Shown: positions 13,770 to 21,821, counted from the stretch's first letter. The stretch is 32,784 nucleotides of DNA from a virus (IMGVR_UViG_3300045988_138410:1-32784); one strand, 5' to 3'. Translations and numbers: made by a program. The notes: a model not told the origin generated them from the letters alone.

Positions 13770-14222
13770 TCATCGAAGGCATTGCGTCCTGATGTATTCC
13801 TGCAGGTAGTTAACCTGCGCGGTTATCCTGTCGATTCCGCTTCGGAGACGGTAATAATTGAGTTCAGCATCTGCTGTAAGTCTTGGGCTTTCTCCATCGC
13901 CCATGCCGCTGGCTCTGGTCGTTGACTTTGCACAGGTGGCGGCGACTTGCAGGCGCTTACGCCCAGCAGAAACATCAGCACGGAGACTTTCGATAGTCGC
14001 GTTAGCATCAGCAAGCTCCTTTGTGTATCTGGCGTCGAGTTCTGCTACATCACGTTGACGCTTCTGCATATCAGCGATGATGGATGTGGCTTTATCACGC
14101 TGTTCTTTGTAGGCGATGGCGTTATCACGGTAATGATTGACCGCCCACGACAGGCAGACGATGATGCAGATAACCAGAGCATAAATAATCGCGGCGACTC
14201 TGCTCACTGATCTATTCCCCAA
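13770..14222 (-). CDS. Rz: Spanin inner-membrane subunit Rz
   Basis: N-terminal [21 protein letters not shown] and YTKELADA motifs match recalled lambda Rz. Confidence 0.9.
13823..14014 (-). CDS. Rz1: Spanin outer-membrane lipoprotein Rz1, embedded in Rz in +1 frame
   Basis: 63 aa with signal peptide, lipobox ending in Cys (LLGVSAC) and Pro-rich stretch; fully inside Rz. Confidence 0.8.
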
Positions 14223-14737
14223 CAGGCTAATGCGCTTTCCTGGTCACGACGAATAACCTGACCGTAACAGTTATTTGAACGAATGCGGCAATCACGGCCA
14301 CCGTCCTTAATCCACCAGCGAATCGCCTCGCATGCACCTTTACGATCACCGGCATTCAGCCGCTTATAAAACGTCGACGGGAAACACTTACCGGGGCCAA
14401 TGTTATAGGGACAGAATGATGCGATACCGGCTTTCTGTGGCTCGGTCAGTGGAACTTTTATATTGCGCTCCACCCATGACAGCGCCTTATCACGTTCAAT
14501 GGCGTTAACCTGGTCGCATTTTTCCTTCGACAGTTTCATGCCGGGAAAAACGGGTTTTCCATCCACCATCGTGGCACCCCGACAGATGGTCCAGATGCCG
14601 GAACCATCGCGGTATGCCGTTGTTTGGTTACCTTCTTTTTCATCCAGAAACTGGTCAAGTATCTGAGGAGCAGATGCTCCTGCTCCAATCAGCGCCAGAA
14701 CTGCAGCTGACAGGCCGTATCTGATTTTTGCGTTCAT
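14204..14737 (-). CDS. R: SAR endolysin (T4-lysozyme-like, phage 21 R type)
   Basis: N-terminal Gly/Ala-rich weak TM (SAR) followed by E...D...T catalytic region, as P21 lysozyme. Confidence 0.9.
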
Positions 14738-14842
14738 GGATATTTATCAGGATTTATCGGTTTCTGAACCCTGGATATGTTTATCTGTCCCGGCCTGTTG
14801 AATCAGGCGGGGAAAAGGTAAAGACAATCAAGAGGATTATTT

Positions 14843-15115
14843 ATGGACAATAACACCATTTCTCTACAGGAGTTGCTCGACTGCATTTCCAGGCTTCGGG
14901 ATGATGTAAATGCCCTCACTGTTGCATTTTCATATCTGGCCTTCTCAATTCCCAGAGAACAAATGCAACCAACACTGGCATCGCTCCTGCTTGAATCACG
15001 CAACCCCAAATGGTCCCAGGAACAACAAAATTCTTTCAAGTGGCTGGCGGCATTACTGGAAGAAAAATATGCTGGTAAAATTACCATTTCGGTGGAGTCT
15101 TCAGAGAACCAGTAA
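14843..15115 (+). CDS. Hypothetical protein on opposite strand inside lysis cassette (possible moron)
   Basis: 90-aa ORF with strong AAGAGGA RBS 6 nt before ATG; fills the 340-bp gap between DUF1327 and endolysin; no recognisable family. Confidence 0.35.
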   Translation: MDNNTISLQELLDCISRLRDDVNALTVAFSYLAFSIPREQMQPTLASLLLESRNPKWSQEQQNSFKWLAALLEEKYAGKITISVESSENQ

Positions 15116-15425
15116 TTCTTCCCGGTAGCTTTCCTTTGTAGGTTATCCACACATTCTGCGCCTCTAAAATTACGGGGCGCTTTTCCGGCGACTGCTCACC
15201 CCCTTCACATAACCCGGCGGCAATCCCCATGAAAAGCTGCTTCGCCTGTTTTTTCGCCTCAGCTTCATAAAACTCCAGCGTGGCCCCTTCAAGTCGCTCA
15301 AGGTTGATGTTCAGATCAAAAATTTCACCGGCAAAACGTTCTTTGTCCTGTAACGTTAAGATTACCGTAACTTTATTCTCAAAATTGCGGGTCCCTTTCA
15401 CAATCAGTTCATAGTTTTGAGTCAT
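15081..15425 (-). CDS. DUF1327-family protein (YdfR-like) between holin and endolysin
   Basis: MTQNYELIVKGTRNFENKVTVILTLQDKERF pattern recalled from prophage proteins at this position. Confidence 0.5.
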   Translation of the reverse strand: MTQNYELIVKGTRNFENKVTVILTLQDKERFAGEIFDLNINLERLEGATLEFYEAEAKKQAKQLFMGIAAGLCEGGEQSPEKRPVILEAQNVWITYKGKLPGRITGSLKTPPKW

Positions 15426-15429
15426 TGAA

Positions 15430-15645
15430 TTACTCTCCCCGTGCAGCCTTACGCTTGTCTTCTTTAATCTTGAAATAAAGGTTTGTCAGATACGTCAGCA
15501 AGCCAAATACCAGACTACCCAGCACACCTATTGCCGCCCACTGTGAGGGCGTGACTTTATCGAGCAACTGTAAAAACCAGTACCCGGCACTACCTGCTGA
15601 GGTGCCATAGGCGACACCCGTTGTTAACTTATCCATGGATTTCAT
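15430..15645 (-). CDS. S: Pinholin (phage 21 S21 type) with dual start M-K-S-M
   Basis: [29 protein letters not shown]...[11 protein letters not shown] nearly matches recalled S21; two in-frame ATGs three codons apart. Confidence 0.85.
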
Positions 15646-15712
15646 AACCCCACCTCGCAGATGCGGGTGCTGTGTAATGGAAATAAAAAGGCCACCTGAC
15701 GTGGCCACCAGA

Positions 15713-16765
15713 TTATTTCCCCACCAGCTCGTTTATCTCTTTCACTGTCTGGTTAAACCGCTCTGACTCAAGCTCAACACCTAAGGCCCGACGCCCCAGC
15801 GCCATTGCTGCTTTTATTGTGGAACCGGATCCCATAAAAAAATCAGCAACCAGATCACCTGGTCGACTACTGGCATTGATTATCTGCCTGAGCATATCCG
15901 CCGGTTTCTCACACGGATGTTTCCCCGGGTAGAACTGAACGGGTTTATGCATCCAGACATCGGTATAAGGCACGGAGACTGATACGGAGAAATAGCGCCG
16001 GAGAGATTTAAACTCATCCAGCAATTCAGAATATTTGCGATTCAGTGAATCATAAGATGCCACCAGCTGGTGGTGTGGTTGTTCCAGTTGTTGTTCCTGA
16101 AACTTCTCTGCCGCTATACGGGAAAACAGTGCCTGTAACTTCCGATAGTCAGCCTCATTCGGCAACTGCCACTGACTGGCACCAAACCAGTGGGAAACCA
16201 TATTTTTCTTACCTGTGGCTTCGGCAATTTGTTTTGCCGTTATACCCAGTTCGGCACGAGCATCCCTGAAATACGAAATCAGCGGTGCCATTATGTGCTG
16301 TTTGAGTTCCCTTTCTTTTGCCGCATAGCCGTCACTTTTGCCGCGATATGGCCCCTGGTAATGTTCAGCAAACAGAACGCGCTCTGTGGCAGGAAAATAT
16401 GCGCGCAGACTTTCTTTATTACACCCATTCCAACGTCCGGACGGCTTCGCCCAGATGATATGGTTAAGCACGTTGAAACGTTCACGCATCATGATCTCAA
16501 TATCAGATGCCAGGCGATGCCCACAGAACAGGTAAAGGCTTCCGGCAGGTTTTAACACCCGCCAGAACTGGGCCAGACAGTGGTCCATCCACTTAAGGTA
16601 ATCTTCGTCCCCTTTCCACTGATTGTCCCAGCCGTTGGGTTTCACCTTGAAGTACGGCGGATCGGTAACAATCAGGTCAATGGAATCATCAGGCAGGGAC
16701 TGAATAAAATGCAGGCAATCAGCGTTGATTAAATCAACACTGTTTATTTTTACAGTATTTTTCAT
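15713..16765 (-). CDS. Orphan DNA methyltransferase, beta-class (DPPY then FxGxG)
   Basis: LIVTDPPYF near N-terminus and DFFMGSGST near C-terminus; no adjacent restriction enzyme gene. Confidence 0.8.
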
Positions 16766-16915
16766 GGATCAGTAAGCGTAACTCTGGTAGGCTCACTCTG
16801 CTTTTGCGCTAAAGCAGTGGGCCGTGGTTCGCTTGTGACCAGTAAGCATGAGCGAATGGCTGGCAGGTGCTACCAACACCCACCAGCCGCCCATTTTCAC
16901 AGCAGGAAACCGCCA

Positions 16916-17119
16916 TTACTGGCAGCGTCTGAATTTATTCCCGTACCCGCCGTTATCCTTCGCCAGCCCCGCCAGAACTAACTGAGTCAGTATTAACTGG
17001 CACCGGGCTTCGCTTACTCCGGTAGTTCTCGTCATCATGCGTGGCGTTACCCACTTGTCAGCAGGTAAGAAATGAAGGACTGCGGCGGCGGTTTCTGTCA
17101 TATCTTGCTGTTTTAGCAT
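16916..17119 (-). CDS. Small hypothetical protein, possible winged-helix DNA binder
   Basis: 67 aa from ATG 17119 with AAGGGA RBS; between tR' and methylase; function unknown. Confidence 0.35.
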   Translation of the reverse strand: MLKQQDMTETAAAVLHFLPADKWVTPRMMTRTTGVSEARCQLILTQLVLAGLAKDNGGYGNKFRRCQ

Positions 17120-17241
17120 GTCTTTTTCCCTTCTGGTTAACATGACATACCAATAACTCTTGTCTAAAAAGCCAGCAAGATAAAAAGTCAGTATTCACGA
17201 CCACCAGCGTGTTTACTGTACTGCACCAAGTTTACAGGTAC

Positions 17242-17266
17242 AAAAAAACCCGCTCAGTGGCGGGTT
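17242..17266 (-). terminator. tR'-like intrinsic terminator downstream of Q
   Basis: Minus strand AACCCGC-loop-GCGGGUU followed by U7. Confidence 0.65.
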
Positions 17267-17312
17267 CTTAAATCTTATCAACGGTAGACATACAAAGCCC
17301 ATCGTTGTGAAA

Positions 17313-17341
17313 ATCTTATCCATATTTTTTGAAAAATGCAA
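17313..17341 (-). promoter_or_regulatory. Candidate late promoter pR' (TTGCAT-17-TAAGAT)
   Basis: Sigma70-like hexamers on minus strand just downstream of Q stop and ~45 nt upstream of the terminator. Confidence 0.45.
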
Positions 17342-17372
17342 GCATCATGTCGTCATCTTCGGCGAAAACCAT

Positions 17373-18125
17373 TTATCTTGTCACCTTTCTCAATTGTATC
17401 TCTGCATATGCTTCTTCCTGCCAGCACTTTGTAACCAGTTTATCAATGACATCTGCATATCCTTTGTACCACTGATAATCCGTCAGGTCTGGTACCAGCT
17501 TCTGGACATGAAGCCGCGCCAGTGTGGTTGGTAAACGGCTAAACCGGTTTCCATTGCAACGCCCACAAACCTTATAAACAGGCGTGCCATGAAGCCGGGT
17601 TCTTTTTTCATCCAGGACAATACCTTTACCCTTACACCCTCTGCACGCTGTGCTGACTTCTCCCTTACCATGACAATGCTGACACAGTTCCTTCACCCAC
17701 TCTTCCTTGATAACAGATTCCCCGCTTCTGGAGTGTTTTACCACCTCGCGCAATACATCATGAAATCCAGTACCAGCACAATGCTCACAGCGAGCCTTAC
17801 TTGCCGCAGACCTGGAATAATCAGCAAAGGCAAAATTCACAAGGTAAGGAATGATCTGTAGCCGGGTTTCTTCACTCAATTTGTTCAATGTCGGGTTATC
17901 CAGTGCCATCGCGTAATTGAACAGACCTTCAATCGCAAACTGAGGATCCTGAACACCAACTTTTGCCAGGAATAAGGCAAACCCAAGCGGTGCTTTCGAC
18001 TGCACCATCCCCTGCGCAGCCATTACATCCGTAATTGTTAAACCACCAGAGCCTGTCGCCGGTGCGTCATCGCTCAATTTTGGAGATTTTGTGGAGTAAT
18101 ATTTCGGTAAGGCTTCAAGGTTCAT
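17373..18125 (-). CDS. Q: Late antiterminator Q (QuuD/QuuQ-type, multiple CxxC motifs)
   Basis: 250 aa with CEHCAGTG, CQHCHGKG, CRGCKGKG, CGRCNG; located immediately upstream of pR'/tR'. Confidence 0.8.
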   Translation of the reverse strand: MNLEALPKYYSTKSPKLSDDAPATGSGGLTITDVMAAQGMVQSKAPLGFALFLAKVGVQDPQFAIEGLFNYAMALDNPTLNKLSEETRLQIIPYLVNFAFADYSRSAASKARCEHCAGTGFHDVLREVVKHSRSGESVIKEEWVKELCQHCHGKGEVSTACRGCKGKGIVLDEKRTRLHGTPVYKVCGRCNGNRFSRLPTTLARLHVQKLVPDLTDYQWYKGYADVIDKLVTKCWQEEAYAEIQLRKVTR

Positions 18126-18138
18126 GCTCGTTCTCCAC

Positions 18139-19134
18139 TTACGCCAGTACGCCTATTGCCAGCGCACGATCGATAAAACGAAATATCAGCTCCAGCTGGG
18201 AGCCATACTTCTCTTCAAATGCCACGGTATCCGCATGCAGCTCGTCGTGATGCTTTCTGCACAAAGGCAACACAAAGAGGTCATGCGCTTTTGTACCCAT
18301 TCCCCCCTGACCGTGGCCTATCAGGTGGTGGGGATCATCAGCAGGCTTTCCACAACATGCACACGGCTGTGTCTTAACCCAGCGCGTGTACTTTTCATTA
18401 ACCCAGCGGCGACGTTTTGGGCGTAACATAAAAGACTCCGGCGACTCCGGATCCACTTTCAGCGCCAGCACCTTTTTCGCCTTATCCTGGATGATGCTGG
18501 TGGCAGGAACCGAAGGCACAAGGTCACTTTCCCGGGTGACAGACGGCACAACAGGCTTCGGTAATCTCAGTGCCTTACGGGCTGCACTTTCCGGTAAGGC
18601 ATCCGCCAGGTCATTACGAATCAGCCACCAGCACAGTTCCGGCATTGTCACAACGTGACTGTCATCAAAACCGAGATCCCGACGCACAACAGACAACACC
18701 CAGCGGGCACAGTTATCCGTTGCCATTGATTCCAGCCGTTCCGTGAACTGATCGCGCAGCTGGTTATCGCAGTGCCAGCACAGACGGATTGCGCCCGGCG
18801 CGTGTCGCATTGTTGTCATGTTCTCGCTGTGCCAGTCGGAATGAGGCCACTGGCAGCCTTTTTCACGAAGTAACCAGCTTTCAAGACATTCCACGCCACC
18901 AGCACGACGGATCACTGCCTCATTGCGGAACACGGCCCGAACGACAGGATCATCCGCCAGCGGTTGTGATGCCGCCGGAACGGCACCACTGGCAAAAGAT
19001 GAATAACGTTCCGGCTCAGGCTCCAGCAGGACACGCCCCTGCATAAACAGGGGCATCAGCTCTGAACCAGGTCTGAACAATACGATCCCCATACGCGGGG
19101 CAATTTCAGGGGTCAGTAGTGCTCTCACAGTCAC
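18139..19134 (-). CDS. DUF968-family protein (YdfU-like)
   Basis: C-terminal CACCGKPADDPHHLIGHGQGGMGTKAHDLFVLPLCRKHHDELH motif recalled from DUF968. Confidence 0.65.
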   Translation of the reverse strand: MTVRALLTPEIAPRMGIVLFRPGSELMPLFMQGRVLLEPEPERYSSFASGAVPAASQPLADDPVVRAVFRNEAVIRRAGGVECLESWLLREKGCQWPHSDWHSENMTTMRHAPGAIRLCWHCDNQLRDQFTERLESMATDNCARWVLSVVRRDLGFDDSHVVTMPELCWWLIRNDLADALPESAARKALRLPKPVVPSVTRESDLVPSVPATSIIQDKAKKVLALKVDPESPESFMLRPKRRRWVNEKYTRWVKTQPCACCGKPADDPHHLIGHGQGGMGTKAHDLFVLPLCRKHHDELHADTVAFEEKYGSQLELIFRFIDRALAIGVLA

Positions 19135-20354: not shown

Positions 20355-20677
20355 ACTTTCAGCTCCCTCTCATGTAACCAGTGGGCTGCACGCAGCCTGG
20401 CGTTTTCCTCACCGGCAAGCAGTGCGCGGATAATCCCGACCGCCTCGCTGTCGTCGTCCTTCACCGCGGTATGAAGAGTGATACCCCGGGCCACGCCACG
20501 CTTTATCGTGATGACGCCTTTTTTCTCCAGTGCGCGAAGATGCTCCACCGCTGCATTCACTGAACGGTATCCCAGCATGGTTGCCACCTCCTGATTGGTT
20601 GGCGGGAAGCCACGTTCTTTCTGGTAAGAAATCAGCATATCCAGCACCTGCTGCTGGCATTGAGTTAACGTCGTCAT
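20351..20677 (-). CDS. LexA DNA-binding-domain-only protein (no S24 peptidase domain)
   Basis: LTQCQQQVLDMLISYQKERGFPPTNQEVATMLGYRSVNAAVEHLRALEKKGVI parallels LexA N-terminal domain; only 108 aa. Confidence 0.6.
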   Translation of the reverse strand: MTTLTQCQQQVLDMLISYQKERGFPPTNQEVATMLGYRSVNAAVEHLRALEKKGVITIKRGVARGITLHTAVKDDDSEAVGIIRALLAGEENARLRAAHWLHERELKV

Positions 20678-21327
20678 GCAGCCATCTCCCTGACCAGTTT
20701 TTCCGCCTGCTGGCGAACCTGCGCCAGAAAGGCCTCACCACATGCCTCAAGTTCATCGCGCCCGATGTAGCTGATTGCCGGTCCCTTCCAGGTCTTGTCG
20801 AAAACAGCAATAGCACCAGCTAAGAAAGCGCCTGTCGGCACCTGCTTCTCATCCTTTGGGATAAACCAGGCAGGCAGTTCAAAACCAATACGCCCGCGAA
20901 TAAAAGCAATATGATCTGCATCTTCCGGCCACCACACTTCGCTGGTGGCAGCTTTGATCAGGAAAACATAGCGACCGCCTTTATCACGCATGGCACTGGC
21001 ATGCTTCATGATGTAACGCATGCCGGTGATGTATTGCCCCTCATGCTGACTGGCGCGGCTGTATGGGGGATTACCAAAGGCAGCACCTTTAAGCTCCGCA
21101 AGACGTTCTGACCAGTCATGTGCCAGCGCGTTGTCTTCCGCCGTGTAATACGCGGCACATTTGGCGTTATCACCGTCAGTGAACAGATCCAGAACAAACG
21201 GACCAAACAGGGTGTTAATTCCCCAGAAAATGTTATCCGGCGTGCGCCACTGATCGCCCACTTCCTTCAGTTCATGGGCTGGTTTGTTCCGCAGTTCCAC
21301 CAGCGCCTGGCAATATTTATTACTCAT
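20674..21327 (-). CDS. Phage Dam-family N6-adenine DNA methyltransferase (NPPY)
   Basis: AFGNPPYS motif; start chosen at ATG 21327 (MSNKYCQ) overlapping upstream stop. Confidence 0.8.
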   Translation of the reverse strand: MSNKYCQALVELRNKPAHELKEVGDQWRTPDNIFWGINTLFGPFVLDLFTDGDNAKCAAYYTAEDNALAHDWSERLAELKGAAFGNPPYSRASQHEGQYITGMRYIMKHASAMRDKGGRYVFLIKAATSEVWWPEDADHIAFIRGRIGFELPAWFIPKDEKQVPTGAFLAGAIAVFDKTWKGPAISYIGRDELEACGEAFLAQVRQQAEKLVREMAA

Positions 21328-21821
21328 TAAGCCCCCACGTAATTCCCTGACAGATACCACTCTTCACCTGATGCAGCCCGCTTATTGCTTTTCCGTAAAC
21401 ACCGTTCACGACGCGCCAGAAAATTATTTCGTTCTGGCTGGGAGTGGCTTTCACGGAATGCCGCCATCCACACCGTTGCAGCACGACGGTATAAGCCCCT
21501 AGACTCCAGTTCTTCCGCCTGGCGGGTCAGGCACAAAATCACCCGCGGGTCGTTAGTGCCGACATAGAAATTGCGCACAGGTCTGGTTTCACGAACTGGT
21601 TGTGGTTCCGGCTCCTGCGCTCTCTCAGTCAGGCGTGGGAAATGTCTGCGTGTATCTCCTTCACAACGGTGAGCCACACGCCCACTCTGACGTAACTTGC
21701 TTGCTGACTGCAGAACGCGCTGCCGTGAGTAACCTGCAAAAGCATCCGCAATATCTCCGGAAGTACACCCCGGATGGGCTTCAATGAATTTCTGAACTTC
21801 ATTCAAAAGACTCATGATCAC
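21327..21821 (-). CDS. PerC-family-like transcriptional regulator
   Basis: C-terminal AEELESRGLYRRAATVWMAAF resembles recalled PerC/Pch signature; ATGA coupling to upstream gene. Confidence 0.45.
   Translation of the reverse strand: MIMSLLNEVQKFIEAHPGCTSGDIADAFAGYSRQRVLQSASKLRQSGRVAHRCEGDTRRHFPRLTERAQEPEPQPVRETRPVRNFYVGTNDPRVILCLTRQAEELESRGLYRRAATVWMAAFRESHSQPERNNFLARRERCLRKSNKRAASGEEWYLSGNYVGA

Follow-up and report, generated by a model that had tools for sequence, protein, structure and literature searches.

What is a DNA methyltransferase gene doing between the antitermination gene Q and the holin gene of a lambdoid prophage, in the interval where Shiga toxin (Stx) phages carry stx? The gene lies on the minus strand of a 32,784-nucleotide viral sequence (IMGVR_UViG_3300045988_138410:1-32784), the whole of which is termed the window here, and the terminase, Q, holin, and cI-like S24 repressor genes in the window indicate a prophage context. 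An earlier note on this DNA described an orphan methylase in that position, expressed with the late genes, and proposed that it protects progeny DNA from host restriction or acts epigenetically. Our analysis confirms the observation and partly supports the interpretation; that the enzyme belongs to the M.EcoGII family had been missed. We assign a probability of roughly 0.7 to the overall explanation that the gene encodes a late, Q-dependent, sequence-independent adenine methylase that acts on progeny DNA and provides broad anti-restriction.

Results and discussion

Identity of the methyltransferase

The open reading frame (ORF) is intact and encodes exactly 350 amino acids. Residues 29-341 match positions 1-220/221 of the Pfam N6_N4_Mtase profile (PF01555) with an E value of 1.4e-42 and a score of 146.6 bits, against a cut-off of 26.7. 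The DPPY motif (residues 35-38) precedes the FxGxG motif, here FMGSG (residues 310-314), which is the beta-class order. Both motifs are invariant in an alignment of 35 homologues, and the catalytic and S-adenosylmethionine (SAM)-binding columns are all intact. The beta-class assignment made in the earlier note is therefore borne out by ORF, profile, and motif order, and the catalytic motifs are undisrupted on alignment.

The fold agrees with this classification. The closest relatives with solved structures are the beta-class N6-adenine enzymes M.BceJIV, RsrI, MboIIA, and CcrM; phmmer matches M.BceJIV with an E value of 3e-24 and M.RsrI with 8e-22, and Foldseek gives a probability of 1.0 to M.BceJIV, MboIIA, and CcrM. 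The AlphaFold2 model used for the Foldseek search was built from 35 close homologues and is of moderate quality (pLDDT 66, with residues 98-149 and 252-285 below 50), and it was used for the fold class and the helical nature of the central domain only. Residues 9-115 and 282-334 align to M.BceJIV, and the part in between is ~166 residues long (116-281) versus ~73 in M.BceJIV, so the insertion of ~120 residues reported before is about right. Its proposed role as the target-recognition domain agrees with the literature (PMC11551740), and the central domain between DPPY and FMGSG (~146-255) is helical in our model. By motif order, profile, and fold, the protein is a beta-class methyltransferase.

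Among the NCBIfam models, which include none specific to the M.EcoGII family, the protein has only sub-threshold matches, to YhdJ-like and CcrM models. Direct comparison is more informative. The protein is identical to M.EcoGII at 280 of 349 positions (80%) over residues 1-348, with two one-residue gaps, and at 77% of positions within the domain for target recognition, which spans residues 160-237. Identity is 88-89% to the reconstructed ancestor Anc291 and 70% to SUPREM. The M.EcoGII reference (GenBank EGT69837.1) was taken from a machine-read PDF of Supplementary Table S1 of PMC11551740, and a few letters may be in error. M.EcoGIX was considered as an identity and rejected: its gene is carried by plasmid pESBL, and its substrate is single-stranded DNA. 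It is near certain from these alignments that the window protein belongs to the M.EcoGII family, a group of N6-adenine methyltransferases without sequence specificity that enterobacterial prophages encode.

M.EcoGII methylates adenine in any DNA context (PMC5778455). M.EcoGII, Anc291, and SUPREM are all active on DNA and have no discernible motif on RNA, and the structure of the family consists of a Rossmann core and a domain (residues 160-237) that is a four-helix bundle containing a helix-turn-helix (PMC11551740). The window protein thus sits within the range of these tested motif-less variants. We would thus expect it to move a methyl group from SAM to the N6 position of adenine with little or no sequence preference, and the 80% identity to M.EcoGII, together with the other relatives, makes such non-specificity highly probable. 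The question of N6-adenine versus N4-cytosine specificity is by the same identity essentially answered as N6-adenine, without a sequence motif.

The enzyme is therefore known biology: both this kind of gene and the gene itself have already been described or annotated. What the window contributes is a further orthologue in a family that REBASE-based studies have catalogued and that is sold as a reagent.

Late promoter and terminators

A candidate late promoter resembling PR' directly follows the stop codon of Q, with a -35 box (TTGCAT, 17341-17336) and a -10 box (TAAGAT, 17318-17313) separated by 17 nucleotides. Seven bases past the -10 box is a promoter-proximal AACGAT(GGG) element, AACGATGGG, at 17306-17301. 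AACGATGGG resembles the lambda PR' pause element, AACGAT followed by GGG being the sigma70-dependent pause element of that promoter. Farther downstream is an intrinsic terminator resembling tR', and in phages SfV and Ayreon a terminator is annotated at the corresponding place.

To place these elements in context we collected 80 related loci, one genome per species, whose methylases are 62-93% identical in protein sequence and whose hosts range from Escherichia to Xenorhabdus, Photorhabdus, Providencia, Morganella, and Yersinia. Fifteen loci have a Q homologue (36-72% identity), and when these are aligned from the Q stop codon to the terminator, the -35 box, the -10 box, AACGATGG, and the terminator are all conserved, including in genera other than that of the window. 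An upstream terminator lies at most 450 nucleotides from the methylase cassette in 66 of 77 loci, compared with 17% of control windows. Given the likeness to the lambda pause element, we read these elements as a genuine PR'/qut/tR' unit.

A consensus scan found no convincing promoter belonging to the methylase itself between tR' and the ATG; over 3.6 kb, the scan returned 2 promoter-like sites when 4.4 were expected from shuffled sequences. In loci that lack the small ORF found upstream of the methylase in the window (for example, L019 and L020), tR' abuts the leader of the methylase and leaves no room for a promoter. Transcription of the gene is thus expected from Q-modified polymerase only. 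The late expression claimed by the earlier note is in this way supported by the anatomy of promoter, terminator, and operon, from which late, Q-dependent timing may be deduced.

In Stx phages, PR' is always active and its transcripts are terminated immediately downstream in lysogeny (PMC7547250). If the window promoter behaves alike, transcripts in a lysogen would stop at tR', ~65 nucleotides downstream, and no enzyme would be made. Such an arrangement fits the published toxicity and silence of the family: M.EcoGI and M.EcoGII are unexpressed in the lysogen, and clones that express them constitutively grow slowly and are unstable (PMC5778455). M.EcoMV, which is 99% identical to M.EcoGI and is borne on a prophage of the sequence type 131 strain EC958, was predicted to be inactive on the basis of reverse transcription-PCR (PMC4659465). 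The position of the gene behind tR' gives a structural explanation for this silence, and thus the anatomy offers a concrete and conserved reason for the reported behavior. After induction, Q-modified polymerase would pass both tR' and the terminator behind the methylase, which would be the first long gene in the Q-dependent late operon of this lambdoid prophage, and the enzyme would appear alongside the lysis and morphogenesis proteins.

This second terminator, a strong one, consists of a hairpin, GGCCACGTCAGGTGGCC, and a trailing TTTTTATTT, and it sits in the gap that separates the methylase stop codon from the holin gene. It is annotated in SfV and Ayreon. A terminator in this second position is found in only 27 of the 80 related loci, with a background of 6.6%. 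It may be a trace of cassette acquisition, or a device that sets the ratio of methylase to lysis transcripts.

The position had been called a moron slot. The downstream terminator fits that description in the window, although only about a third of relatives share it, and the promoter that a moron should bring along was not found in the scan. The methylase is not a classical moron; throughout Enterobacterales it is a conserved occupant of the late operon.

The arrangement of PR' and tR' (17242-17341, minus strand) also predicts a constitutive RNA of ~65 nucleotides in lysogens, a presumptive counterpart of lambda 6S RNA and of the small RNA StxS.

Function and rival explanations

We propose that replicated phage DNA would be methylated at many adenines before it is packaged, and that progeny would enter the next host already protected against many Type I, II, and III systems that are sensitive to N6-methyladenine (m6A). 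Protection of phage DNA is the published view of the role of this family (PMC5778455; review PMC12707154), and the earlier proposal of progeny protection matches it. This view is a published assumption rather than a result, and we consider the anti-restriction role itself to be probable, with somewhat less assurance than the sequence independence of the enzyme.

Several points weigh against this explanation. The literature searched yielded no study of hypermethylated virions from any phage that carries the gene, and none in which the gene improved plating on restricting hosts; a paper on prophage small RNAs of enterohaemorrhagic Escherichia coli leaves methylases unmentioned. The specificity and activity of the window orthologue are deduced from homology, and the 20% divergence from M.EcoGII (23% across the target-recognition domain) might conceivably have altered its specificity. 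Within the small ORF there is a weak promoter-like site (CTGACA-16-CATGAT, 17061-17034), from which some Q-independent transcription may arise. Heavy m6A modification would also carry a cost by exposing DNA to m6A-dependent Type IV nucleases. Finally, it is not obvious why a phage with an early Dam-family methylase would need another methylase.

The same weak site, which is downstream of tR', is one reason to consider the other proposal of the earlier note, namely a sequence-specific orphan enzyme that works in the lysogen and has epigenetic effects on genes of the host or the prophage. Regulatory orphan methylases of prophages are known, as the one described in PMC12435837 illustrates, and the target-recognition domain of the family has a helix-turn-helix (PMC11551740). 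An epigenetic role in the lysogen is nonetheless quite unlikely. Identity of the window protein to enzymes shown to lack sequence specificity is 80-89%, with the target-recognition domain counted in; its close homologues are reported to be unexpressed in lysogens or are predicted to be inactive, and they are harmful if constitutive (PMC5778455, PMC4659465); and a strong terminator stands between the gene and the only good promoter. Because the family is silent in lysogens and non-specific, a search for a methylation motif in a lysogen would probably fail, and the absence of a motif there would not count against the finding.

Another alternative is a main role other than protecting progeny DNA from restriction: the enzyme could act on RNA or on host DNA during a late takeover, or it could mark phage DNA for packaging or replication control. 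M.EcoGII acts in vitro on single-stranded DNA, DNA:RNA hybrids, and RNA (PMC5778455), but its activity on RNA is ~100-fold below that on DNA (V0 of 0.12 versus 11.1; PMC11551740, Supplementary Table S3). A role in packaging has a precedent in phage P1, whose packaging needs methylation (review PMC12707154), and the presence of a Dam-family methylase elsewhere in the genome could suggest that the second enzyme serves another purpose. Yet 933W-like Stx2a phages are viable with a stump of ~50 codons, so the gene is accessory and is not required for packaging or growth. We regard a different main target as unlikely, although less so than an epigenetic role. The least probable alternative, and a very unlikely one, is that the gene is a decaying, non-functional passenger of a defective prophage. 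Truncated remnants are indeed present in many Stx2a phages, and M.EcoGII was described on a cryptic prophage (PMC5778455). Against decay stand the full-length ORF, the intact catalytic and SAM-binding columns, identities of 62-93% across ~80 species, the conservation of both leader and position, and the presence of the gene in the plaque-forming phages mEp460, Ayreon, and SfV. These three phages are also tractable systems in which to study the proposed role of the family, hypermethylated virions that escape restriction broadly.

A conserved structured leader RNA

The spacer of ~150 nucleotides between the small ORF and the methylase ATG is more highly conserved across genera than the small ORF protein, whose amino acid identity is 38-69%. 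It contains a structured leader RNA of ~135 nucleotides that abuts the ATG. We built a covariance model from 33 sequences and a hand-drawn structure, and searched both strands of 86 sources (886 kb). One copy was found in each of 62 of the 86 sources and none elsewhere. All 62 copies end at a methylase ATG, including 21 in loci that have no detectable small ORF.

Covariation supports the structure. After realignment of the 61 distinct sequences, 87% of cells pair, compared with 32-49% in slid controls. Double changes occur in 16 of 29 pairs (P2, 9/12; P3, 4/6), whereas shuffled alignments average 7.0 and none of 500 reaches 16. The realignment is guided by the model and thus leans toward the structure, and because the sequences are related, the shuffle controls overstate significance. 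In the untouched MAFFT alignment, 9 pairs have double changes, a number that 0 of 500 shuffles equal. In distant members, from Yersinia, Ewingella, Lonsdalea, Chania, and Symbiopectobacterium, the P2 sequences are wholly different and pairing is kept. The frequent U-G pairs place the structure on the sense strand of the methylase. RNAalifold applied to the plain MAFFT alignment gave a poor consensus, in which a one-base bulge shifts the inner P2 columns, and it was replaced by the hand-drawn structure and realignment.

Two folds can be drawn. Fold A is a three-way junction in which P1 (UGGGC/GCCCA) surrounds P2 and P3 (UUCGCU/AGCGAA), followed by a separate hairpin, P4. Fold B excludes P1 and P3; GGUCA.CAAGCG pairs with CGCUU..UGAUC and covers nucleotides -2 to -13 before the AUG. 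The Fold B helix is paired in 89% of cells and has double changes in 4 of 10 pairs, and an extension of P4 in this fold (GGC.CAC/GUG.GCC) is 93% paired. The CAC/GUG extension was also tried within Fold A, where it clashes with P1, and it was assigned to the alternative fold. Covariation support is weaker for Fold B than for Fold A. The two folds are near-isoenergetic, with family means of -52.6 and -52.6 kcal/mol and values of -61.5 and -61.2 kcal/mol for the window copy.

No Shine-Dalgarno sequence is apparent on reading the sequence before the methylase ATG. Fold A would leave the AUG free, and Fold B would pair the nucleotides just before it. The leader is probably a translational control element for a harmful enzyme, whose synthesis it would limit or time. 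The more specific proposal, that it is an undescribed cis-regulatory RNA that gates methylase translation by switching between two folds, falls a little short of even odds in our judgment. Switching could be triggered by the kinetics of co-transcriptional folding, by the adjacent winged-helix protein, or by a small ligand, for example SAM or S-adenosylhomocysteine.

A cmscan of 14700-18200 against Rfam 15 at E<=1 gave no match at the leader, and the leader sequence string was not found in the literature searched. Two sub-threshold matches to Leu/Trp leaders at 17240-17310 were rejected, as they correspond only to the hairpin of the tR' terminator. A 33-codon ORF that starts with ATG inside the window leader was rejected as well, since the P2 loop contains a TAG in most relatives. 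The leader is the only element of the locus that may be new. Many Enterobacterales have it; blastn detects it in 2689 of the 5426 complete E. coli genomes, or about half, and among 12 sampled blastn rows a DNA methyltransferase lies at its 3' end in all except the weakest, a partial 36% match. If the leader is a translational switch, it would explain how the phage handles a harmful enzyme and would constitute a new RNA regulator in thousands of sequenced E. coli genomes.

A shortened leader is found ~85-100 nucleotides upstream of the methylase in Xenorhabdus and Photorhabdus loci, where P2 is kept and P1, P4, and most of P3 are gone. The covariance model is blind to these copies (L058, L060-L063, L066-L071, and L074-L084) at E<=0.01.

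The small winged-helix protein

The ORF upstream of the leader belongs to phrog_331. Most homologues start at its ninth codon, corresponding to position 17119 in the window, and the resulting 67-amino-acid form is the more likely product. Homologues share an invariant RCQLILTQL helix and occupy the same place in 53 of the 80 methylase loci across Enterobacterales. The AlphaFold2 model (pLDDT 84) is a three-helix winged helix with the order H-H-H-beta-beta. Foldseek relates it to Zalpha, IclR, MarR, and TrmB winged helices with template modeling scores up to 0.75 and weak E values (~3e-3), and the source annotations of some homologues read TrmB-family or DprA-like winged helix. The protein could bind DNA or the leader RNA.

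The interval between Q and the holin gene

The features of the locus are listed in Table 1. The methylase is flanked by Q, the small winged-helix ORF (67-75 amino acids), and the holin, DUF1327, and lysozyme genes, and no nuclease gene adjoins it. The statement that it lacks a restriction partner thus holds, and the locus is not a type II restriction-modification system with an adjacent cognate endonuclease. The DUF968/HNH gene beyond Q is a common lambdoid gene, which lies upstream in 40 of the 80 loci regardless of their other content. Neither tRNA genes nor toxin genes were found in the window.

Table 1. Features of the late region of the window, in the order of transcription of the minus strand
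Feature	Position	Strand	Basis
DUF968/HNH protein	18139-19134	-	PF06147
Antitermination protein Q, 250 amino acids, QuuQ/SfV-Q type	17373..18125	-	PF03589, E 1.5e-52
PR'-like late promoter	17301..17341	-	Sequence and alignment of 15 loci
tR'-like intrinsic terminator, AAGAACCCGCCACTGAGCGGGTTTTTTT	17242..17269	-	Fold -14.9 kcal/mol, z -2.5
Small ORF, winged-helix, phrog_331	16916..17143	-	75 amino acids from first ATG
Conserved structured leader RNA, ~135 nucleotides, abuts methylase ATG	16766..16900	-	Covariance model, covariation
DNA methyltransferase, M.EcoGII-family beta-class N6-adenine, 350 amino acids	15713..16765	-	ORF, PF01555, and M.EcoGII identity
Second intrinsic terminator, hairpin GGCCACGTCAGGTGGCC then TTTTTATTT	15681..15706	-	-19.8 kcal/mol, z -4.85
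S21-type holin, 71 amino acids, MKSM dual-start motif	15430..15645	-	PF04971, E 3.6e-35
DUF1327/YdfR protein	15081-15425	-	PF07041
90-amino-acid ORF, overlaps end of DUF1327 gene	14843-15115	+	phrog_2411, E 9.6e-58
Lysozyme	14204-14737	-	PF00959
Rz	13770-14222	-	Matches mEp460 annotated Rz

The counterpart of the Q protein is annotated as Q in mEp460, Ayreon, and SfV. The holin gene is the first lysis gene 3' of the methylase and has GAGGTGGGG upstream of its start codon. The DUF1327/YdfR gene and the 90-amino-acid ORF on the opposite strand are two extra genes between holin and endolysin.

When the 80 loci were searched by tblastn for genes on the same strand, the DUF968 gene was found upstream in the share given above and a Q of the window type in 15/80; downstream, lysozyme was found in 41/80, Rz in 28/80, and an S21-type holin in 18/80. 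Most of the loci thus have lysis genes behind the methylase. The position of the methylase is thus kept while the flanking genes are mosaic.

The earlier note was right to point to this interval as the site of the toxin genes in Stx phages. The genes of Stx2a_WGPS2 run from Q through two reverse ORFs, a small ORF, the methylase, three tRNA genes, and stx2A to stx2B, and further genes, the holin, YdfR, and lysozyme genes follow. In 933W-like Stx2a phages, all that is left of an M.EcoGII-type gene before the tRNA-stx2 block is its final ~34-50 codons; Stx2-converting phage 86 (Stx2-86), for example, has a 153-nucleotide 3' stump of the methylase between Q and the tRNA genes (L005:4962-5114). This suggests that the tRNA-stx cassette, or its neighbors, replaced most of the methylase gene in 933W-like phages. 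With stx either downstream of the methylase or partly in its place, the methylase seems to have occupied the interval earlier than stx.

A second adenine methylase gene lies in the early nin-like region (20674-21360, minus strand). It encodes a Dam-family protein of 228 amino acids (PF05869, E 3.5e-45), whose counterpart in mEp460 is annotated as 'phosphoadenosine phosphosulfate reductase'. The phage thus carries two unrelated methylases with different predicted timings.

Close relatives and prevalence

The DNA from Q to the holin gene is 98.9% identical to that of mEp460 and 98.8% identical to that of Ayreon. Identity to SfV is 96.4% over 84% of the stretch, and to cdtI it is 98.8% over the shared 65%; a set of Stx2c phages is ~93% identical. 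The records of mEp460, Ayreon, and cdtI and the RefSeq copy of SfV call the gene product a DNA methyltransferase or methylase, and the original SfV record has it as orf48, unknown.

At least 1265 of the 5426 complete E. coli genomes carry the methylase gene (megablast), and its protein clusters have thousands of members across Enterobacterales. The prevalence of the gene and of its leader in E. coli is consistent with selection for function.

Comparison with known systems

The nearest counterparts are the orthologues mEp460 gp53, Ayreon 0053, SfV orf48, and the cdtI methylase. Their gene order is that of the window, and both terminators are annotated in SfV and Ayreon. mEp460 and Ayreon have ~0.7 kb of extra DNA between Q and the small ORF, which the window lacks.

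M.EcoGII, from a prophage of E. coli O104:H4 C227-11, and its twin M.EcoGI (Murray et al. 2018, PMC5778455) are likewise borne on prophages and are nearly the same size as the window methylase (349 versus 350 amino acids), and M.EcoGII has the same beta-class motif order and central helical domain. The window protein differs in belonging to a distinct clade, nearer to Anc291 (88-89%) than to M.EcoGII. For genomic context, the Stx2a_WGPS2 locus, which has a 93%-identical orthologue, stood in for the native O104:H4 locus of M.EcoGII. That orthologue follows Q and has the leader, as in the window, but it precedes tRNA and stx genes, whereas the window methylase directly precedes an S21-type holin.

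A similar logic is found in enzymes of other descent. M.HaeV, an alpha-class phage adenine methylase of relaxed specificity (cited in PMC5778455), and Mom of phage Mu share with the M.EcoGII type the use of one late, tightly silenced phage enzyme that modifies adenines so broadly that many restriction systems fail. Silence in lysogens and toxicity are described for Mom and M.EcoGII alike (PMC12707154). Alpha-class enzymes have FxGxG before DPPY, unlike the window methylase, and the target-recognition region of M.HaeV-type enzymes and Mom is not homologous to that of the window protein. Mom also differs in its chemistry and is not known to make N6-methyladenine.

The late region of Stx phages, with PR'-tR', stx, and the small RNA StxS, has the layout of the window: a late promoter of constitutive type, a terminator that stops its transcripts at once in the lysogen, and cargo before the holin gene that Q-dependent read-through would reach. 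The cargo is a methylase in the window and a toxin in Stx phages, and in Stx2a phages the stretch from tR' to the tRNA-stx block contains the methylase gene or its stump.

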